NCBI GenBank assembly: GCA_951406725.2
Contig: OX597821.1
Span: forward strand, 72,602,001-72,666,000
Direction of reading: 5' to 3'
Length of the DNA: 64,000 nucleotides
From: Octopus vulgaris
Taxonomy: Eukaryota
Of this stretch, positions 655-62,963 are shown in pieces; positions within the stretch are counted from its first letter, which is position 1; every line of letters starts with the position of its first letter. The notes beneath the pieces are model-generated. The model saw only the letters and a list, made by a program, of their open reading frames with translations, ran no database searches and was not told the DNA's origin. The position numbers were made by a program, and so were the translations under genes.

Positions 655-1528
655 GACAATGAAGGGTCTGTCTTTCTCAGAGTAAAAGGCAGATTGTATG
701 ATGCCAGTGTGCGAACAGCTGTGCTGTATAGCAGTGAAACATGGGCTGTGACAGCCAAGGACATGCGTAGGCTTGAAAGAAAAGAAGCCAGTGTGCTTTG
801 CTGGATGTGCAATGTCAGTGTGCATGTTCAACAGAGTGTAAGCATCTTGAGAGAAAAGTTTGGCATGAGGCATCAGATGTGGTGTGCAAGAAAGAAGACT
901 GCTCTGGTATGATGATGTGATTGATGTGCATGGTCAAGGACAGCTATGTAAAGAAGTGCTGATCTCTAACTGTGGAGGGAACCTGTGGTAGAAGTAGACC
1001 CAGGAAGACATGGGATGAAGTAGTGAAGCATGATCTTCGCACTTTGAGCCTCACAGAGGCAACGACTAGTGACTGAGACCTTTGGTGATATGCTGTGCTT
1101 GAGAAGACCCAGCAAGCCAATTAAAATTGTAGTCCTGGCTGATGTTGGTGTCATAACTGGCACCCATGCTGGTGGCATGTACAGAGCACTGTGGGAGCAT
1201 TGGGCCTCACAGAGGCAAAGTGGCTGAGTTCCTTTTGAGTGTTGGGCCTCATGGAGGCAATGACCGAGACCTTTGGCATTATGTCATGCTTGAGAAGAAG
1301 ACTCATCAAACTGAGCAAAATTGCAGTTGTGGCAGATACTGGTGTCATGCAAATGGCACATAAAAGCACCCATTACACTCTGAGTGGTTGGCATTAGGAA
1401 GGGCATCCAGCCATGGAAAACCATGCCAAATCAGACTGGAGTCTCGTGCAGCCTTTGAGTTTGCCAGCCCTGATCAAACCGTCCAACCCATGCCAGCATG
1501 GACAATGGATGTTAAATGATGATGATGA
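655..1528 (+). mobile_element. RTE LINE 3' fragment (same family as 6860-8655)
   Basis: RVKGRLYDASVRTAVLYSSETWAVT homologous to 7775-7999; same 3' UTR and (GAT)n tail. Confidence 0.9.
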
Positions 1529-2505
1529 AGTGGCTGTATTTCAGTGTTGCAGATATTTTGCACGATTCTCTTATTGTTGCAATGAAAGGTTCTACCATCT
1601 GTTTGTGGTTTGAAGGAGTCTGATTTCTGTTTGGGGTGACCAGCTTCACTCTCACTCTTGACCAGTAGCAAGCAAAAAGTTGTAATGACTGGAAATACCT
1701 CAGCGATGCACTGGCACGACCAGGGTGGCTGAGATACCTCACTGTGCCCTGAGGTAAGTGCTCCATAGTGGCATTGCTGGAAATCGTCTTTCTGCTGGTT
1801 GAAATCTAATCCCTGATTGTCACAGATTGTCTATCACAATTCTAGTCTTCACATACTTATGGTGACAAGGCTCGAAAACTCTACAGCTTCTCTCAAACTG
1901 GTTTAGCAGATTGCCATTGCAGTTGTCCAGGTGTGCAGGCATTTTGTTGTCCAATGAGGGCCAGCAGCCCTGGAAAGGGATTACAAATTCCTCCTTGTCA
2001 AAGGTATTGGATCTCTCTGACTCACCATACTTTGCTTTTTTAACAGTGTTAAGAATGTCAAATGTCCCAGAGTGGTTGTTGGGAATGGTTAACTCTTTTA
2101 GATTGTAGTAAGAGGGAATCTTTTGAGAGTTGAGTTCCCATTGAGATGTCAGCATCAATGGCTGCAACAGATGCCTTGGCTGACTGAAGATAATTGGTGG
2201 AATCATTATCAGTAATGAAGAGAACGTTAGGTGGGGGAAGGGTGCAGGAGGAGAGAGAGAGGGATTAGTAGAGAGTTGTTGATTACGAGGAAGAAGAATG
2301 AGAGAGGTTTTATGTTTGGTGTGGGAAATGGAGAGGCTTTTGAGAATTAGTCTATCCACTGTTGAGGTGTTACTTTTAACAGCAGTGTAGAGTTGATGAA
2401 ATGGGAGAGTTTACATACGAAGAGGTCAGATAGAGACAAATGGCATCTATAGTCTGGCCGTTTGGCTCAGAGGTTCCTGTGCCACAAATTATGGAAGGCT
2501 TTGCT

Positions 2506-2775
2506 CATCATCATCATGATCATCGTTTAACGTCTGTTTTCTATGCTGGTATGGGTTGGATGGTTCAACTGGGGTCTGGGAAGCCAAGAGGCTGCACCAT
2601 GCTCCAATCTGATCTGGCAGTGTTTCTACAGCTGGATGCCCTTCCTAACACCAACCACTCCTAGAGTGTAGTGGGTGCTTTTTACGGGCCAGTGGAGGGC
2701 TGACATCGACCGTGATCGGATGGTGCTTTTCATGTGCCACCAGCATGGAAGCCAGTCAAGGCGGTGCTGGCGTCA
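2506..2775 (-). mobile_element. RTE 3'-tail copy
   Basis: Same tail in reverse, (CAT)n start on + strand. Confidence 0.85.
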
Positions 2776-3289
2776 AACAAAAGCCATTGCTTAAGTCCTT
2801 GATGTGTAGCGGAAGGGGAAAATTTGTACTGAGGGTCAATAAGAAGGGAAAGAATTGTTTATTGCTGTTTCTGCCATCTTTGAGGGAAGTGAGGGCAGTC
2901 AGTTAGCTGTTGGCTGGGTTAGAAAGATTGATCAGTTTGGGAGTTGGGATGCATTTGTGAGTTTTTATAGGTTGAAACAGAGATGGAAAGATTAAAAAGT
3001 TTATGCTTTTTAAGGGTAGAGAAGGGAACCCTGTCGGGATCAGTATCCTTCTTGGGTGGGGTTGAATAGAGATGTTTACACATTCGCTGAACATGTGGCA
3101 GGGAGTTGTGGGTGGGTGGATACATCTATGATGGGTTACTTAACCCTTTAGCATTTACTGGCCATATCCGGCCAAAAGATTTAACTTGTTTTATGTTCAT
3201 ACTGGCTAGATCCAGCCTCTCACCCCTAACCTACAATGTCATTCTAAAAACAATCATATCATGGAAATGTTAAAGCCACACAATAATGC

Positions 3290-3830
3290 ATTATCATCAT
3301 CATCGTTTAATGTCTGCTTTCCATGGGAGCTGTCCAGACTCCAATTGGTTTCTACAGCCGGGTGCCCTTCCTAACACCAACTACTCAACAGTGTGTGCTG
3401 GGTGCATTTATGCAACACCAGCACAGGTGTGTCAGTACAGCACCGACACAGGTGCATCTTTAAGTGGCACTGGTACCTGAAAGGAAGACGGCGATTTAGC
3501 CTGACGTGTCTTATCAAGTACAAGAAATTGCTGCATCTTTTGCTGGTCCCTTTGTCATTTCCTCAGTGAGGCCCAGCAGCCGAAGATCCTTTCTCACCAC
3601 TTCATCCCATGAATTCCTGGGTTTGCCCTTTGCACAGGTATCCTTTACAATTAGGGCTTGGCACTTCTTTATGCAGCTGTCCTCATCCATACTCATCACA
3701 TGTCCAAAACCAGCGCAGTCTTCTCTCTGATGCCTTTTATACCCAGTTTTGCTCTTAAACCATTTACACTCTGTCATGTGTGCACACTGACATTACCCAT
3801 CCAGCAGAGCATGCTAGCTTCATTCCTTTC
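3290..3830 (-). mobile_element. RTE LINE 3' fragment
   Basis: GHVMSMDEDSCIKKC...GKPRNSWDEVVRKDLRLLGLTEEMT followed by degenerate tail. Confidence 0.85.
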
Positions 3831-4245
3831 ATCATCATCGTTTAATGTCCGCTTTCCATGCTAGCATGGGTTGGACGATTTGACTGAGGAGGACTGGCAA
3901 ACCAGATGGCTGCACCAGGCTCCAATCTGATCTGGCAGAGTTTCTACAGCTAGATGCCCTTCCTAACACCAACTACTCCGAGAGTGTAGTGGGTGCTATT
4001 ATGTGCCTCCAGCACAGGAGCCAGTCCAGCGGCACTGGCAACAACCTCACTCAAATGTTTTTTCGCATGCCACCAGCACAAGTGCCAGTATTGTGACGCA
4101 GGTAACGATCACGCTCGAATGGTGCTTTTTACGTGCCATCAGCACGGAGGCCAGCTTGTTGCTCTGGCAACAATCATGCTCGTATGGTACTCTTAGCACT
4201 CCACTAGCACAGATGCCAGTCAATGAATTTGATTTTGACTTCGAT
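3830..4245 (-). mobile_element. RTE 3'-tail copy with internal tandem units
   Basis: Same tail plus repeated ggtgctttttacgtgcca units. Confidence 0.85.
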
Positions 4246-4369
4246 AACCTTAATTAATTCAAAACAATGTGAATAAATAAACATTACATTTGATGTCAAG
4301 CCAAGTAAAATTCTGGCTGTCCATGCATACAGCCATGTCCTTTGCATCCTTCTCTCAGCTGAAAGATTC

Positions 4370-4580
4370 TTGTCTTGTGGGCTCGCGGGTATCGGTGCCA
4401 TCTAAAAAGCACCCACTACACTCTGTAAAGTGGTTGGCATTAGGAAGGGCATCCAGCTGTAGAAACCATGTCAAATCAGACAGCTGGAGCCTGGGCAGCT
4501 CTCCAGCCTTGCCAACTCCTGTTGAACTGTTCAACTCATACCAGCAAGGAAAACAGATGCTAAATGATGATGATGATGAA
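4370..4580 (+). mobile_element. RTE 3'-tail copy
   Basis: aaaagcacccactacactc...taggaagggcatccagctgtagaaa...gatgatgatga. Confidence 0.8.
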
Positions 4581-5194
4581 AGTGTTGCATGGATTTTTAA
4601 ACCTAAATGTGGATGGCTGTGATGAGCATCGCTAATTTTTAGAGTTAGTGAACAGGGGAGGGATTCAAAGAAACACAATTCTAAAGACAAAAAATTAAGC
4701 AAAAATGATGAATTTGTCATTGACAAGGTTAGGGCTTCAAAGTAGTTTCCAGTTGGAGTGGTTTGTTGTTGCTTGGTACTTGACCAGTTCTAGACTAAGA
4801 TCTCTCACAAAAGACCGTTTCTCTATTATTCAGGCATATCAATCTTGGACTTCATACTCCAACGTCCCACTTTTTAAGATGGTGTGATTTAAGGGAGATT
4901 TGGTTGTTATTTCTAGTTGAGTGACAATGTAGAGGCTGGTTATTTGGCTTGGTTTTTCTCAGAAGCCATGCTGTAGAAGAGGGTCCACACTGTGATAATC
5001 AGTTGATAGGGATTTGATTTCTCTTTATTAGTTAGTTTGTGGGGAGGGGCTGTATTTGTGACCCTCTCAGACCAGTACATCATCATCATTTAATGTTCGT
5101 TTCCATGCTGGCATGAGTTGGACGGTTTCACAGGAGCTGGCAAGGCTGGGATCCACACCAGGTTCCATTGCCTGTTGTGGCATGGCCAATCTCT

Positions 5195-5385
5195 GTGGTT
5201 GTTAACAGCTGCAGGAAGAGAATTCCAGTTTGGTTTATGGCTCAATGGAGACAAGTTCTGTGTGTGAGTATCAGTGAAGAAGTCCTCAACCATTGCAACT
5301 GAAGAGAGTAGTCAGGAGGCAAGTAGGATTGTAAGCCTGGAATATGGTTGAGTCTGTTGTGATGTGTATGTTTAGAAAGTTAGTT
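5195..5385 (-). mobile_element. CR1/L2-like LINE C-terminal remnant
   Basis: WNSLPAAV motif in the minus-strand translation. Confidence 0.35.
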
Positions 5386-5774
5386 GTCATCATCATCATT
5401 GTAAAGAAAAAAATGAACAGGACTGAAGTATTTTTTATAGCTTTAAGAGGAAACCCAATTTTGAAAATTCAACATTTAACTGCAATGTGGACTATGAAGG
5501 TGGCCATTTGCCAGTTTTTGTTTTGGCTCTCTGCAGTTTCAGTTCAAATCCCAGCATGGTTGACTTTAGCATTTCGTCCTCCCTGGGTTAATGAATGAAA
5601 AATACCAGCCAGGTACTGGGTTCTTCACTGTGACCCTTCAAATCAGCTGTGCTAGGGTTCTCTTTCTCTAGTCAAAAGGAAGCTGTTGAGGAAAGGGCTG
5701 GCAAACCTCTTCTCATAGAAACCAAAAAACTGATCTGCCATTGTAAACAGGCCAAAAGACAGGCCAATGATTCC

Positions 5775-5915
5775 ATCATCGTTATCATTGAACGTCTGTT
5801 TTCCATGCTAGCATGGGTTGGATGGTTCGACCGGGGTCTGGTAAGCCATGGAGGCTGCACCAGGCTCTAGTCTGATTTGGCAGTGTTTCTACAGCTGGAT
5901 GCCCTTCCTAACGTC
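5775..5915 (-). mobile_element. RTE 3'-tail copy
   Basis: ttccatgctagcatgggttgga...ctacagctggatgcccttcctaacg. Confidence 0.8.
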
Positions 5916-9444: not shown

Positions 9445-9752
9445 TTCTTGTTTCAGTCATTTGATTGTGGCCATGCTGGAGCGCCGCCTTTAGTCGAACA
9501 AATTGACCCCAGGACTTATTCTTTGTAAGCCTAGTACTTACTCTATTGGTCTCTTTTACTGAACTGCTAGTTTTTGGGGACGTAAACACACCAGCATCAG
9601 TTGTCAAGCGATGGTGTGGGGACAAACACACATGCATATATATATATATATATATGGCTTTGGTCGGCCCGAGGCTATAATAGAAGATACCTGCCCAACG
9701 TGCCATGCAGTGGGACTGAACCTGGAACCATGTGGTTAGTAAGCAAGCTACT
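9445..9752 (-). mobile_element. SINE family 1 copy
   Basis: Reverse-complement match to 9993-10385. Confidence 0.8.
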
Positions 9753-23505: not shown

Positions 23506-26500
23506 TCTGGTTCGCCAAACCTCAGCCAAATCATACAACCCATGCTAGCATGGAAAGCGGACGTTAAACGATGATGATGATAATCAACAGAGTATGTTCC
23601 AAGAATAAAAATACTACAGTTGTTAGTTTAATCACAATACTATAGATATTAAAATATAGTTAATTTAATGCATTTAAATTAACCCAAAATAATTATTCAG
23701 TGAAGTAAGAACATTATTGTTAGTTAACATGGAAGGATCATTAAAAAGCTAACACTTAGCTTATTGCTTCACATAAAGATGCTATTTTTCTGAATATAAT
23801 TGATGAAAACAATGGTGATGATGGTGAGGAAGGAGTTTATTAAGTTTACAGATCATTTCCTCAATACATAATACGTTTTCAGGGTAAGACACTTAATCCA
23901 TTATTTTAACAAAAGGAATATTTATTTACATTGTTTAACACAGGATATCGATATGATCTGCTTCTATTTGCCAAAAGGGTTTTATTAACTTTCTCAAATC
24001 AGAAATCTGAAATATTTTGTGTGGTGGTATACAGGTACATCATACATGTAATTACACTACAACGACGTGATACGAGTTATCTCATAGCAATGAAAAAATG
24101 CTCAGATTGGTTTGCTAGGAAGGCTTTGAGTGGATGTTATTCATTATTTGACTTTGTCTCTTCATTGTATAATGTTTTCTTTATATTTTTTCAGATTTAT
24201 AAAGAACTTTTATACATTTTGACTTGTAATATATAAGATACCCAAAACCTTTTCCAATGAAGACATTGCTGGAATGCTTCATGTACTCATGGAAAATGAA
24301 CTACCGGAAGATGATATCTTGGAGTCAGAGAGTGAATCCTCAGATGCTTTGGATAAGAAATTATGTAGCAAATGCCAGTGGAAGTAAATACCAGTGACAC
24401 CAGTTCTACTGACAAAGATGAACAATTGATTGCTCGAGGTTGTAAGAGACAACGCAGTTCCCTGGCACCAACTGCATCGACATCCAATACTTATACCTGC
24501 TATATATAGAGGTTTTACCAAATATATTTCCTGGCTTGTGCCATGATACGATTTAACTCGTATCATTGAGCAAATAAAAGGTGTCTTTAGTGTTTCCACA
24601 ACACACTCACAATGTTAGTTCCAGACGTCAGTTCATTTTAAGCATGCTACAATAAAATAGACTTCTACGAGTATGCTCGTACCTGGTAAAAATGTATAGA
24701 TTGCCAACTACGAGATAACTCGTTGTTGGCAGTCAACATGTTAAACGAACAGAGAGATTATAATTGATAATTATAATTTTAGTAGTAATTTAGCTGAGAT
24801 AGATTAATTCTTGTTTTCTATTTTTTACATCGACTTCTTATGTTTTAACACAGTTGATATGGTTCTGAAATTTGAATAATTAGACTACATGCAACAAATT
24901 TATCAACAACTGAGTTTATTTATATTATTTACATTTGATGGATATTTGTCCTCATCTTGTTTGTTGTTAACACAACGTTTCAGCTGATATACCCTCCAGC
25001 CTTCATCAGGTGTCCACAGGCATATGGCCTAGTGGTTAAGAGTGTGGGCTACTAACCCCAAGACTCCGAGTTCGATTTCAGACAGTGACCTGAATAATAA
25101 TAATAACAACAACATCAAAAAATACCTTAGGAATGAGAACCCAGGTTCGAAATTTCCCCAAGACACCTGATGAAGGCTGGAGGGTATATCAGCCAAAACG
25201 TTATGTTAACAACAAACAAGATGAGGACAAATATCCTTTGAATGTAAATAATGTGCGTAATTCCTCATCTCTTAAATATAGAACAGTGAGTTTATTTATG
25301 TTATGAAGAGTGGCCAACAGTAATACAAATTTTTAACAATTCTTACAAATATCTAAATTTACAAAACTTGGAGCAGAATGAGAAAAATAAAACGCATAAA
25401 ATTTTTAGAAAATATAACAAATCATAACGATAAGGAAATCACCTGACAAAATATAGGATGCGAAACTACATCAGCTGGGATAAACACTCATATCAGTAAC
25501 TAATGAGGAATCAATAACACAAGAATGGTTCAAAGGATTTATTACTGACAGAAAGGTAGTTGAGTGCTGCAATGGAAGAGTAGCAAGGAAATGTTTTATG
25601 GTGTTTAGTTTGATTTCTTTGTGTTCTCTTGACTCAAAGACTGCTTCCGTTGCTTTTATCTCTAAGCTTCACAAAGTGAGTCTCAGCTGGACACAGGAAT
25701 TCATTCAACTGATAACCCCCAGCTGACTACAAAAATCTGCGACAACGTTGATATTAATAGAAAGTTGTGGCCAATGACAGGGCCCCCTGACTGGCTCCCT
25801 GTGTTGGTGGTACGTAAAAAGCACTATTCGAGCATAGGTCAATGCTAGTGACACCAGACTGGCCCCCGTACCAGCGACACGTAAAAAACACACACTACAC
25901 TCTTGGAGTAGTTGGCGTTAGGAAGGGCATCCAGCTGCAGAAATATTGCCAGATCAGATTGGGGCCTGGTGCAGCCTCCTGGCTTGCCAGTCCCCGGTCA
26001 AACCGTCCAACCTAGGTCAGCATGGAAAATAGACATTAAATGATGATGATTAATGTTAAAGTAAGTAACCAGAAGCGATTAGTTACATAGCTCCATGTTT
26101 TGAGTTCAAATAGCACTAAGGTTGTTTTGCCTTTCATATGTCTGAGGTTGCAATATTAAACAGCCATGTTGTGTACTGGGATCAAGGCAAATTTGTGGTC
26201 AAGTGCCAATGTATATCGTTATTTCATAAACGTAAAAGTCAAACATTATTAGTTCATGGTTTCAAAATTACGATTCTTATAGACTAGATGAATTCTTAGT
26301 TGTTCAAAATCAAGTTACGAACTTTATTCGTATTCTATAATTATGCCTATATTTAATTCAACGATCAATGACTTAACTCATGATAAAATCCGAATGTGAA
26401 AGTTTCATGCTTGTAAAATCCTGGGTTTATCTTGTGTCACGGGAACTGAGTGACAGACAAGAGCCAGGATTTGTTCTTCTCTCCTGATTATCTTGAGACA

Positions 26501-46500: not shown

Positions 46501-47860
46501 ATTAATTAAAAACAAAAACTTATATATTAAAGCTTCATAGGTGTGGGAGTGGCTGTGTGGTAAGTAGCTTGCTTACCAATCACATGGTTCTGGGTTCTAT
46601 CCCACTGTGTGGCACCTTGGGCAAGTGTCTTCTGCTATAGCCTCAGGCCAACCAAAGCCTTGTGAGTGGATTTAGTAGACGGAAACTGAAAGAAGCCCGT
46701 CGTATATGTGTGTGTGTGTGTATGTGTTTGTCCCCACAACATCGCTTGACAACCGATGTTGGTGTGTTTATGTTCCCGTAACTTAGTACTTCGGCAAAAG
46801 AGACCGATAGAATAAGTACTAGGCTTACGAAGAATAAGTACTGGGGGCGATTTGTTCGGGTAAAGGCGGTGCTCCAGCATGGCCACAGTCAAATGATTGA
46901 AACAAGTAAAAGAATAAAAGAAATGCTGTTGCGATGTGATTGTTCTTATTTAATAGAGAGAAATCATTCTTGAAAATATTCATGGAATTTCAATGTGGAA
47001 ACTACATTCTCTTGTAGCACATCTCCCATTACTTTCTTAGTTGTTCGTAAAGGGCTTTCCGTGTAACTCTACTGAAAAAGAAAGCTATGTGTGTGTGTGT
47101 ATGTGTGTGTGTGTGTACATACATTTGTACTTCTCGCCAAGCTGTCCACCACACATCGCTGCAAGAGCAGTTTTCACAGACAGAGCATGGACTACACCTC
47201 TTCTTTGTCTAAAAAGATAAAAAGCAAGCAAGAAGCATTATATAGCAATAAATAATTAAAAACATATCAAATACATTCTATATTTTCTTTTCGTAGACAT
47301 TTTGAATTCTTTTTTTTTTTTTTGAATGACATACATACAGCGTAGTGTAGTGTAGGGGGTGCTCTATACGAAGGTCAATGTTTCCATAGACCTTGCAAAA
47401 TATACACCTGATACGAGTGATGAGATGGTATATTCGAAATAAAGGTTAGGAGTTCAAACAGAACACAGGGATGAGCTACCTGAGAACTGTATACAATAAG
47501 ATCATTGGGGAGGGGGGGGAGATAGAGAGAGATAAGTGAGAGAGAGGGAGACAGAGAGTCAGTATGTGTTTGCACATATAAGTACAGGTGCATGTGGCTG
47601 CAGGCAAAGATGCACAGTTAAGTAGTTTGCTTTCCAGCCACATGGTCCTAAGTTCAGTCCCACAGTGTGGCACCTTGGGCAAGCTGCTTCTGCTTTAGCC
47701 CTGCTTGTGTGTGTGTGTTTGTTCTCCTTGTTCAGGCATCATATAATGGTTGTAAAAACAGGCCCAGGCTGGTAAGAGGAAGGGCATTTGACTGTAGAAA
47801 ATCTGGCTCAATGAATTCAGTCCAACTCATCCAAGCATGGAAAAAGCAGACATTAAAATG

Positions 47861-57597: not shown

Positions 57598-58146
57598 TAC
57601 ATTATTTACATTTGACAGATATTTGTCCTCATCTTGTTTGTTGTTAATACATTTTGGTTGATATACCCTCCAGCCTTTATCAGGTGTCTTCGGAAAATTT
57701 CGAACTTGGGTTCTCATTCCTAAGGTATTTTTGGATGTTATTATTATTATTATAATTCTGGTCATTGTCTGGAATCGAAGTCGGAATCTTGGGGTTAGTA
57801 GCCCATGCTCCTAACCACTATGCCATATACCTGTGGGCAATTATGGAGTGAATTTTAGGGCTTATAAATCTAATATTTTTCTATCTTTCCTTAAAATTAT
57901 ATTTATAAGCCCTAAAATTCACTCCATAATTGCCCACGGGCATATGGCATAGTGGTTAAGAGTGCAGGCTACTAACCCCAAGATTCCGAGTTCGATTCCA
58001 GGCAATGAAAATTTCCCTAAGACACCTGATGAAGGCTGGAGGGTACATCAACCGAAATGTTGTGTTAACAACAAACAAGATGAGGACAAATATCCATCAA
58101 ATGTAAATAATGTACATAATTCCTCATCTCTTAAATATCGAACTGT
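57598..58146. mobile_element. Penelope-like fold-back element (family A) with two back-to-back tRNA-like modules
   Basis: 57598-57869 is largely the reverse complement of 57901-58112 around a loop of about 31 nt; the right arm has a deletion. Confidence 0.8.
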
Positions 58147-59617: not shown

Positions 59618-59730
59618 TACATTATTTACATCTGATGGATATTTGTCCTCATCTTGTTTGTTGTTAACACAATGTTTCGGCTGATATACCCTCCAGCCTT
59701 CATCAGGTGTCTTGGGGAAATTTCAAACCT
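59618..59730 (-). mobile_element. Single arm of family A Penelope-like element
   Basis: Same sequence as the 24924-25014 arm; abuts a SINE. Confidence 0.75.
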
Positions 59731-62257: not shown

Positions 62258-62963
62258 ACAGTTCTATATTTAAGAGATGAGGAATTATGTACACTATTTA
62301 CATTTGACGGATATTTGTCCTCATCTTCTTTGCTGTTAACACAACGTTTCAGCTGATATACCCTCCAGTCTTCATCAGGTATCTTGGAGAAATTTTGAAC
62401 CTGGGTTCTCATTCCCAAGGTATTTTTTGATATTATTATTATTATTATTATTATTATTGTCATTGCCTTTGCACAGCTTATAATACTGAAGATTCACTAC
62501 CAGTGAACTAAGGTAACACCTCTTATTTTTTGAGCACCATCCGGAGTATTCGGGTGGTTCCAAGCAGTGCTGTTTTCTGCAAGTGCTCCACCCTTATTGC
62601 AGCCCCTATCTGTTCCACGTACTTCTTGAGATTTTTACTCACCATTCCCAGGCTTCCGACTACTGCTACCTTTTTCATCGACCACAACTGCTTAACTTCC
62701 CAAGCTATCCCGTCATATTTCTTATTATTATTACTATTACTATTATTATTATTCCGAGTTCGATTTGAGGCACTGACCTGAATGATAATAATAATAATAA
62801 TAATAATAATAATATCGAAAAATACCTTAGGAATGAGAACCCAGGTTTGAAATTTCCCCAAGACACCTGATGAAGGCTGGAGGGTATATCAGCCAAAACG
62901 TTGTGTTAACAACAAACAAGATGAGGACAAATATCCGTCAAATGTAAATAGTGTAAATAATGT
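62258..62963. mobile_element. Penelope-like fold-back element (family A) enclosing an R4 fragment
   Basis: Inverted arms 62258-62458 and 62752-62963; direct repeat atcttgagtaac at 62244-62255 and 62964-62975. Confidence 0.8.
62459..62722 (-). mobile_element. R4/Dong-like non-LTR retrotransposon 3' fragment
   Basis: KYDGIAWEVKQLWSMKKVAVVGSLGMVSKNL...LQKTALLGTTRILRMVL* is the typical C-terminus of restriction-like-endonuclease R4-clade elements; flanked by (TAA)n. Confidence 0.8.

Follow-up and report, generated by a model that had tools for sequence, protein, structure and literature searches.

Among described Penelope-like elements (PLEs), two are close counterparts of the insertion studied here. 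Pen2a_Av from Adineta has a pseudo-long terminal repeat (pseudo-LTR, pLTR) that includes the first codons, a tail, an inverted pLTR, a 9-bp target-site duplication (TSD) and a 5' palindrome (PMC3846280), while in PAc from Anolis a hammerhead ribozyme lies over the start codon (PMC11167929). The PLE promoters described so far are either TATA/initiator (Inr) promoters or resemble those of long interspersed elements (LINEs) with a downstream promoter element (DPE), as far as the available parts of these papers go (PMC3846280; PMC2377424). The insertion lies at 24911-25299 of a 64,000-nucleotide stretch of the Octopus vulgaris genome (contig OX597821.1, positions 72,602,001 to 72,666,000; hereafter the window). 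The original prediction, made from the letters alone, described it as a non-coding, non-autonomous element with a tRNA-like RNA polymerase III (Pol III) promoter and a hammerhead, mobilised by a Penelope reverse transcriptase (RT). Sequence comparisons make it nearly certain that the unit belongs, as pLTR, to an autonomous Penelope/Poseidon-type element with an RT and a GIY-YIG-type nuclease. By sequence the insertion looks like an ordinary Penelope insertion, and what would be unusual about it is that the pLTR of a coding element free of terminators holds a promoter of the tRNA type.

The identity of the unit follows from the sequences that continue on either side of it in other copies. At several loci a frame coding for the nuclease ends just upstream of the tRNA-like segment, here called the head; when copies were picked on the protein of the nuclease end, 28 of 30 led straight into the head and two had pieces of the head further on. 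At locus L171 a 569-codon open frame ends about 40 nt before the head. This frame matches RVT_1 at E 2.7e-6, which is below the Pfam cut-off, contains an RT with a YVDD-type motif region, and has a C-terminal CxC..H..H pattern that aligns with full-length homologs. The database proteins matching the element protein (2,923 at E<=1e-20) align over the RT, a short linker and the CxC..H..H nuclease. A Pfam search of the nuclease piece returned no family and no GIY-YIG match, and PF01541 is present in some homologs. By the criteria of PMC8557442, the domain order and the lack of a Cys-rich linker point to an endonuclease-bearing (EN+) Penelope/Poseidon element.

At the other end, the ATG at 25133 is the presumed start of the RT-endonuclease open reading frame (ORF), and the 51 open codons that follow it (25133-25287, plus strand, 155 nt) resemble the N-terminus of an 847-aa homolog, P0003 (pairwise E 3e-4). 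The unit is thus not non-coding, as had been thought, and its interpretation as a 3' untranslated region (UTR) only was dropped, since it also encodes the start of the ORF. Of 30 long copies, six that are near-full have the tail at the end of the unit continue into the ORF, in frame where translated. The exact word across the junction of tail and ORF occurs 148 times genome-wide; 50 of 100 listed places were fetched, and 28 of these 50 copies carry on for at least 100 nt. The order of the element is head, (AAT)n, ATG, hammerhead, tail, rest of the ORF, stop, about 40 nt, and the head again. The search that had been proposed for an autonomous element with RT and GIY-YIG domains sharing the arm therefore found its partner, and mobilisation by a Penelope RT agrees with the unit being the pLTR of an RT-bearing element. 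The locus L514 (G000:C6:18543436-18545452) has the end of the ORF, the head, the tail and 78 nt of the next ORF start in succession, which is evidence at the sequence level for tandem or multimeric templates and for priming past the tail. A first metagenome scan and a viral scan found no relatives. Penelope-like sequences also turned up in contigs of assembled genomes that are labelled bacterial or archaeal (L420-L433), likely as host contamination.

In the window, the 13-nt direct repeat said to bracket the unit is present as left and right TSD copies at 24911-24923 and 25287-25299 (plus strand), and the first base of the right copy doubles as the end of the element. The main copy is a complete pLTR (25011-25287, plus strand) with its 5' end at -8 relative to the head. 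The inverted partial copy reported upstream of it is likewise real: a 5'-truncated, tail-less second pLTR copy, or fold-back arm, occupies 24924-25014 on the minus strand and is 93% complementary to 25162-25252 over 91 nt. Positions 25011-25014 are common to the main copy and the arm and are a junction microhomology. On the plus strand the main copy has the 73-nt head (25018-25090), the predicted (AAT/AAC)n spacer in the 5' UTR (25093-25116), which differs in length among copies, a minimal type I hammerhead within the coding sequence (25162-25207), and an optional Penelope tail (25253-25287) between two putative RT start sites, with bimodal 3' ends.

The head is tRNA-derived, to judge from its alignment to host tRNA genes, and the tRNA-like segment of the original prediction is therefore real. 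In all six copies compared, the alignment scored z 6.2-8.8 and none of 200 shuffles was equal. The head of the window copy scored z 6.4 with tRNA-Arg(TCG) as its best match, and that of locus L013 has 47 identities to tRNA-Arg, gapless over the first 66 positions; the comparison covered 30 host tRNA genes of few isotypes, so the donor is not fixed. Both boxes are canonical in the family majority, while the tRNA stems are decayed. In the window the A box TGGCCTAGTGG, a predicted element of a type-2 Pol III promoter, was found where it had been claimed (25025-25035, plus strand). The B-box-like word GAGTTCGATTT is present as well (25068-25078, plus strand), with one mismatch: the last C of the consensus GTTCRANNC, which is C in 88 of 96 family copies, is T in the window copy. 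With default settings ARAGORN called no tRNA in the window or at any of 32 loci, and with relaxed settings it folded one of six copies as a tRNA at ps90. The cloverleaf stems are poorly paired, and the head in the window does not fold as a cloverleaf.

The head appears to be peculiar to this family among the relatives compared, which were 49 PLE loci from metagenome and genome-collection contigs that reach the end of the ORF, 39 of them with at least 150 nt downstream. None of these 39 has an A/B-box head before the hammerhead; the sole box pair among them, at L398, lies about 500 nt out and has no hammerhead match. Several relatives show TATA-like words in the position of the head. A tRNA head inside a Penelope pLTR, in place of the RNA polymerase II (Pol II) motifs of relatives, is thus an unusual feature. 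No close free-standing donor short interspersed element (SINE) was found in the 1.07 Mb searched. Nine of 30 loci selected on the head at first appeared to be head-only; three of them resume past an insertion or a long AAT run, and two bear fold-back arms.

The head also coincides with the 5' edge of the pLTR. Exact 17-mer matches in the 2.8-Gb host genome (reversed controls gave 0) numbered, from the ORF to the 3' end of the element, 986 and 1,253, then 5,817 in the head, 10,375 before the ATG and 13,683 in the 3' part. The step from 1,253 to 5,817 falls over 65 nt at the 5' side of the head and is 4.6-fold (7.2-fold corrected), while the other steps along the element are 1.2-1.8-fold each. 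When 84 segments were mapped, 59 started between -8 and +10, 13 further upstream (three deep in the ORF) and 12 downstream, so that 59 of the 72 segments reaching +10 end between -8 and +10. Copies without inversion also have their 5' ends concentrated there. The A box is 13-14 nt from the edge, which fits the expected start position of Pol III relative to its A box. A second group of 5' ends, at -1/0 (12 of the 84), would suit another explanation, in which a longer Pol II transcript is shortened by a cut of the RNase P type at tRNA position 1 and so acquires its 5' edge, the tRNA-like segment being the processing signal. The single copy folded by relaxed ARAGORN agrees with this, but the badly paired stems, the unfolded head in the window and the many ends upstream of position 1 do not, and several of the -1 junctions are fold-back microhomologies; such processing is very improbable.

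The lack of TTTT in the element was set as a prediction ahead of the test. The sense strand has no TTTT in 2,757 majority columns (23 long copies), against 5.0 expected (P 0.0055), and A-runs are normal. In the 794-codon open stretch the count of zero compares with 2.7 expected from synonymous shuffling (P 0.040) and with 3.0 (P 0.028) and 4.1 (P 0.016) from other nulls. Natural copies of the family, which are not independent, have 25 TTTT when pooled against 105 expected. Four other RT families of the genome have 3-4, 11-13, 7 and 2 TTTT, near or above expectation, and 35 other PLE frames matched for T content have 131 against 97 expected. Frames of at least 300 codons were present at 63 of 93 related loci, a few of the longest of which may not be those of the PLE; 4 of these 63 are free of TTTT, as are 0 of 20 frames of at least 600 codons. 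Of 30 host tRNA genes, 23 have a run of at least four T within 30 nt, with exactly four in 5. The depletion of T-runs in these sequences is thus a consistent but modest signal.

Taken together, these observations lead us to favour, with slightly better than even confidence, a captured tRNA-type Pol III promoter that drives the element from a start near -8. The 5' edge and the absence of TTTT favour Pol III indirectly and would extend it to the whole element. Transcription would begin about 7-8 nt before the head, and with no sense TTTT in 2.7 kb Pol III could traverse the ORF and stop at the first T-run of the flanking DNA. Those solo copies whose boxes are intact would likewise act as SINE-like templates. 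The full form of this proposal is that Pol III transcribes an autonomous coding element end to end, the captured promoter having replaced that of Pol II, the 2.5-kb ORF having been purged of TTTT, and each solo pLTR being a built-in SINE; this is tentative and rather unlikely to hold in its entirety. Translation might, speculatively, be helped by the A-rich (AAT/AAC)n leader that precedes the start codon. Translation aided by the ribozyme without a cap, as described in the available text of PMC13725137, was rejected as a route, since the cut lies downstream of the ATG.

Several points weigh against Pol III. Its RNA is uncapped, and the route of translation is unexplained. Under the strictest null for T-runs P is only 0.04, and the shorter control frames include the four TTTT-free ones given above. 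The 5' ends are spread over about 19 nt and are not sharp. Only 2 of the 28 junction copies reach the head, one of which extends to -63, and L514 shows templates that cross units. The box search in relatives was insensitive, with both boxes found in one of two positive controls. A palindrome at -15..+8, which ranks with the most stable local folds of a 550-nt stretch, covers the edge itself, and rotifer PLEs with TATA/Inr motifs and without a tRNA head have 5'-terminal palindromes and a fixed pLTR boundary, according to the part of PMC3846280 available, so that something other than a Pol III start may account for the 5' edge. A TATA-like word (7 of 8 matching) is found at -38..-31, 30 nt upstream of the edge.

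Transcription does not decide the matter. Reads of three RNA-seq runs (species label 'B') and the contigs of one run were aligned to a natural copy. The reads are abundant but equal on both strands, 66-71% of them pass into unlike sequence, and they show no pile-up of starts or ends, features that do not favour a Pol III unit; they speak neither for nor against a dedicated transcript. This signal is passive presence in host transcripts and has no bearing on short or uncapped RNA. As a separate observation, at L026:960-1790 the RNA reads have many A>G and T>C differences, and fold-back pairs are potential substrates for editing; many of these differences arise because the reference copy has undergone CpG decay of its own, which explains much.

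A Pol II Penelope, in which the head of a tRNA-derived SINE and its (AAT)n tail were inserted behind the start site as a passenger, accommodates several of these points. The TATA-like word, which lies over the stop codon, would be the driver, and the edge would come from the Pol II start or from self-priming at the palindrome, consistent with the edge hairpin and the many snap-back junctions. TATA-like words are seen by eye shortly before the hammerhead in relatives (L345, L347, L350, L366, L405 and L422) and occur in published PLEs (PMC3846280, in part), and the Penelope of D. virilis has a LINE-like internal promoter with a DPE (available text of PMC2377424). The genome is also rich in tRNA-SINE heads weakly like that of the element. 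However, the only TATA-like word is outside the pLTR, so that the A and B boxes are the only recognisable promoter inside it; copies bounded by pLTRs that start at -8 lack the word, which is therefore not inherited. Both boxes are intact although the tRNA stems have decayed, non-inverted copies share the edge, no close donor SINE was free-standing in the 1.07 Mb, and the absence of TTTT over 2.7 kb is left to chance (P 0.006-0.04). A passenger head carried by Pol II is nevertheless an appreciable possibility, if short of an even one.

The size and structure of the family bear on whether the unit is an element in its own right. After correction for decay, the 17-mer counts correspond to roughly 20,000-44,000 segments, and the median divergence from the column majority is 6.5% (99 copies). 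The family is found in DNA or unclassified sequencing runs of six species labels, while no RNA run in that search was on record as holding it. Short copies are about 7 to 15 times as numerous as those bearing the ORF, ORF pieces in the 864 kb sampled were never longer than 63 nt, and solo copies, having the boxes, the hammerhead and the tail, could serve as templates. These numbers would suit an independent, non-coding Pol III element, similar to Sm-alpha or a retrozyme, that borrows the Penelope enzyme, as originally predicted. As a separate family this is largely refuted and quite improbable: the unit is identical to the pLTR of the autonomous element and encodes the start of its ORF. Three linked subfamily variants, forming two haplotypes, are common to 30 ORF-linked and 69 short copies, with no fixed difference between the two groups (smallest p 0.003 among 276 columns), and therefore there is no separate non-autonomous lineage. 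No tandem monomer arrays of the retrozyme type were found; copies are single or inverted pairs. Mutation rates by region are flat among copies (3.5-4.9%), as for neutral copies, so selection on the boxes or the ribozyme is not demonstrable from them.

The hammerhead claimed for the window has the expected layout, that of a Penelope-type minimal hammerhead with a palindromic stem III, but its plus-strand core is mutated. The motif reads CAGCC-AAAACGTT-ATGTT, with G12 changed to A at 25195 and stem I broken at 25203, and the ribozyme is predicted from the sequence to be dead; the family cut site would follow 25202. The word GAAACGTT is found only in the inverted arm, whose hammerhead (24969-25014, minus strand) has the core CUGAUGA and GAAACGUU intact and a G-U pair closing stem II. 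The layout of the family has a 5-bp stem I, CUGA(U/A)GA, an extra A, a 5-bp stem II, GAAA and the palindrome AACGUU, with a predicted cut after GUU (column majority). Both core words are retained in 26 of 99 copies, and the sole core change at the master level is at the free position 7. Five other families have the same layout with different stems. The N-termini of P0003, P0124 and P0149, from related families, share a similar peptide, TPDDGRRSNW-x-KR, whose codons imply that these families, too, translate the hammerhead in this frame, with an altered stem II.

The proposed checks by Rfam and covariation gave the hammerhead no backing. Rfam returned no tRNA or hammerhead match in the unit and its surroundings (3.2 kb), nor at six loci of low divergence, and no stem covariation was seen within the family. 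Single-strand folds of the head and the hammerhead did not surpass those of shuffled sequences (z -0.2 to -1.2). In an intact copy the active-like dimer has -22.1 kcal/mol, compared with a minimum free energy of -30.6 for the cofold, and is not the ground state. These models predict that the hammerhead would need dimerisation or the help of a protein, and cleavage in PLEs is described as slow and dimer- or protein-assisted in what is available of PMC6765202 and PMC11167929. Cutting would take off the start codon.

The ends of copies suggest how they are made. The 3' ends of 104 segments are bimodal, with 43 including the tail, 54 lacking it and 7 other. An inverted arm is present in 56 of 98 tail-bearing insertions, and in these 56 the outer ends of the arms mostly cluster 25-35 nt short of the tail end. 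TSDs of at least 8 nt flank 25 of the 56 fold-back insertions, compared with 1.8% of mismatched flank pairs, and only 2 of 42 direct insertions, suggesting that a TSD arises only when cDNA is primed from both nicked strands. The protein of the element would nick AT-rich DNA, and the RT would prime inside the RNA at either tail end; this is proposed by analogy because PAc of the anole was found in vitro to prime internally at two sites bounding the tail (PMC11167929, in the text available). Priming at the first tail would lead to run-off at the RNA 5' end after about 275 nt and so to abundant solo pLTRs, priming at the downstream tail to ORF-bearing copies, and a second, tail-less cDNA from the other strand to the arm and the TSD.

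The window contains the family at three further places, 57598-58146, 59618-59730 and 62258-62961. The first is a fold-back pair that extends 46-63 nt upstream of the head and has an internal deletion. With four clusters in 64 kb, the window is more densely populated than random sequence, in which 8 of 40 stretches of 20 kb had any copy at all. At 62500-62714 (minus strand) about 60 open codons flanked by two inverted family copies resemble the C-terminal end of what we take to be a restriction-endonuclease-type LINE. Other abundant interspersed repeats include those at 1354-1528, 9447-9752, 25840-26053, 46539-46917 and 50289, and part of these repeats bear tRNA-like heads weakly similar to that of the Penelope unit.

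Autonomous retroelements are usually transcribed by Pol II or by Pol I read-through, and SINEs by Pol III. If Pol III drives the octopus element, this split would be broken; Pol III would, in this natural case, produce a long ORF whose translation needs no cap, and a direct path would lead from an autonomous element to a SINE-like swarm. If the head is a mere passenger, the family is an ordinary Penelope one that has picked up a SINE head. With on the order of 40,000 segments, it is even under Pol II a high-copy system whose genomic copies display the internal-priming model, including the two RT start sites, the solo pLTRs and the TSDs tied to inversion.

The Penelope family itself is probably already catalogued, as an annotation of octopus repeats lists 190 Penelope-like families, in its available text without such detail (PMC13282606). 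In the literature consulted, including PMC8557442, PMC4209133 and PMC3846280 and leaving Repbase and Dfam uncovered, no PLE with a tRNA-derived pLTR or a Pol III promoter was found. Non-LTR retrozymes are likewise short hammerhead sequences from PLE pLTRs, but are defined by tandem monomers, unlike the octopus unit; that text has no mention of tRNA, Pol III or a promoter (bioRxiv 10.64898/2026.07.22.740005). The layout of the hammerhead shows the traits listed for the minimal type I hammerheads of PLEs (PMC4209133; PMC6765202, as available), with the cleavage triplet GUU where 5 extracted relatives have GUC. In Schistosoma Sm-alpha and Sj-alpha a Pol III-type promoter also adjoins a hammerhead, but these are non-coding tandem repeats (available part of PMC6765202), whereas the octopus unit serves as terminal repeat to a coding element and is scattered as fold-back pairs. 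The TRIMp3 elements Cassandra, Helenus and Ajax similarly have the Pol III promoter of a small RNA gene in their terminal repeat, with boxes retained and the fold lost; they are non-autonomous LTR elements, as far as the accessible text of PMC10886601 describes them, while the octopus element is an autonomous PLE. The closest resemblance in structure is to PAc and Pen2a_Av, with which, as they are described in the text available, the octopus element shares a single ORF for an RT with a C-terminal GIY-YIG-type domain, a pLTR that holds the ORF start, a hammerhead overlapping the start, an optional tail of about 30 nt, an inverted 5' pLTR, a TSD of 9-15 nt and a palindrome at the 5' end of the pLTR. 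Unlike either of them, the octopus pLTR opens with a tRNA-derived A/B-box head, has no internal TATA, and belongs to a unit without TTTT.
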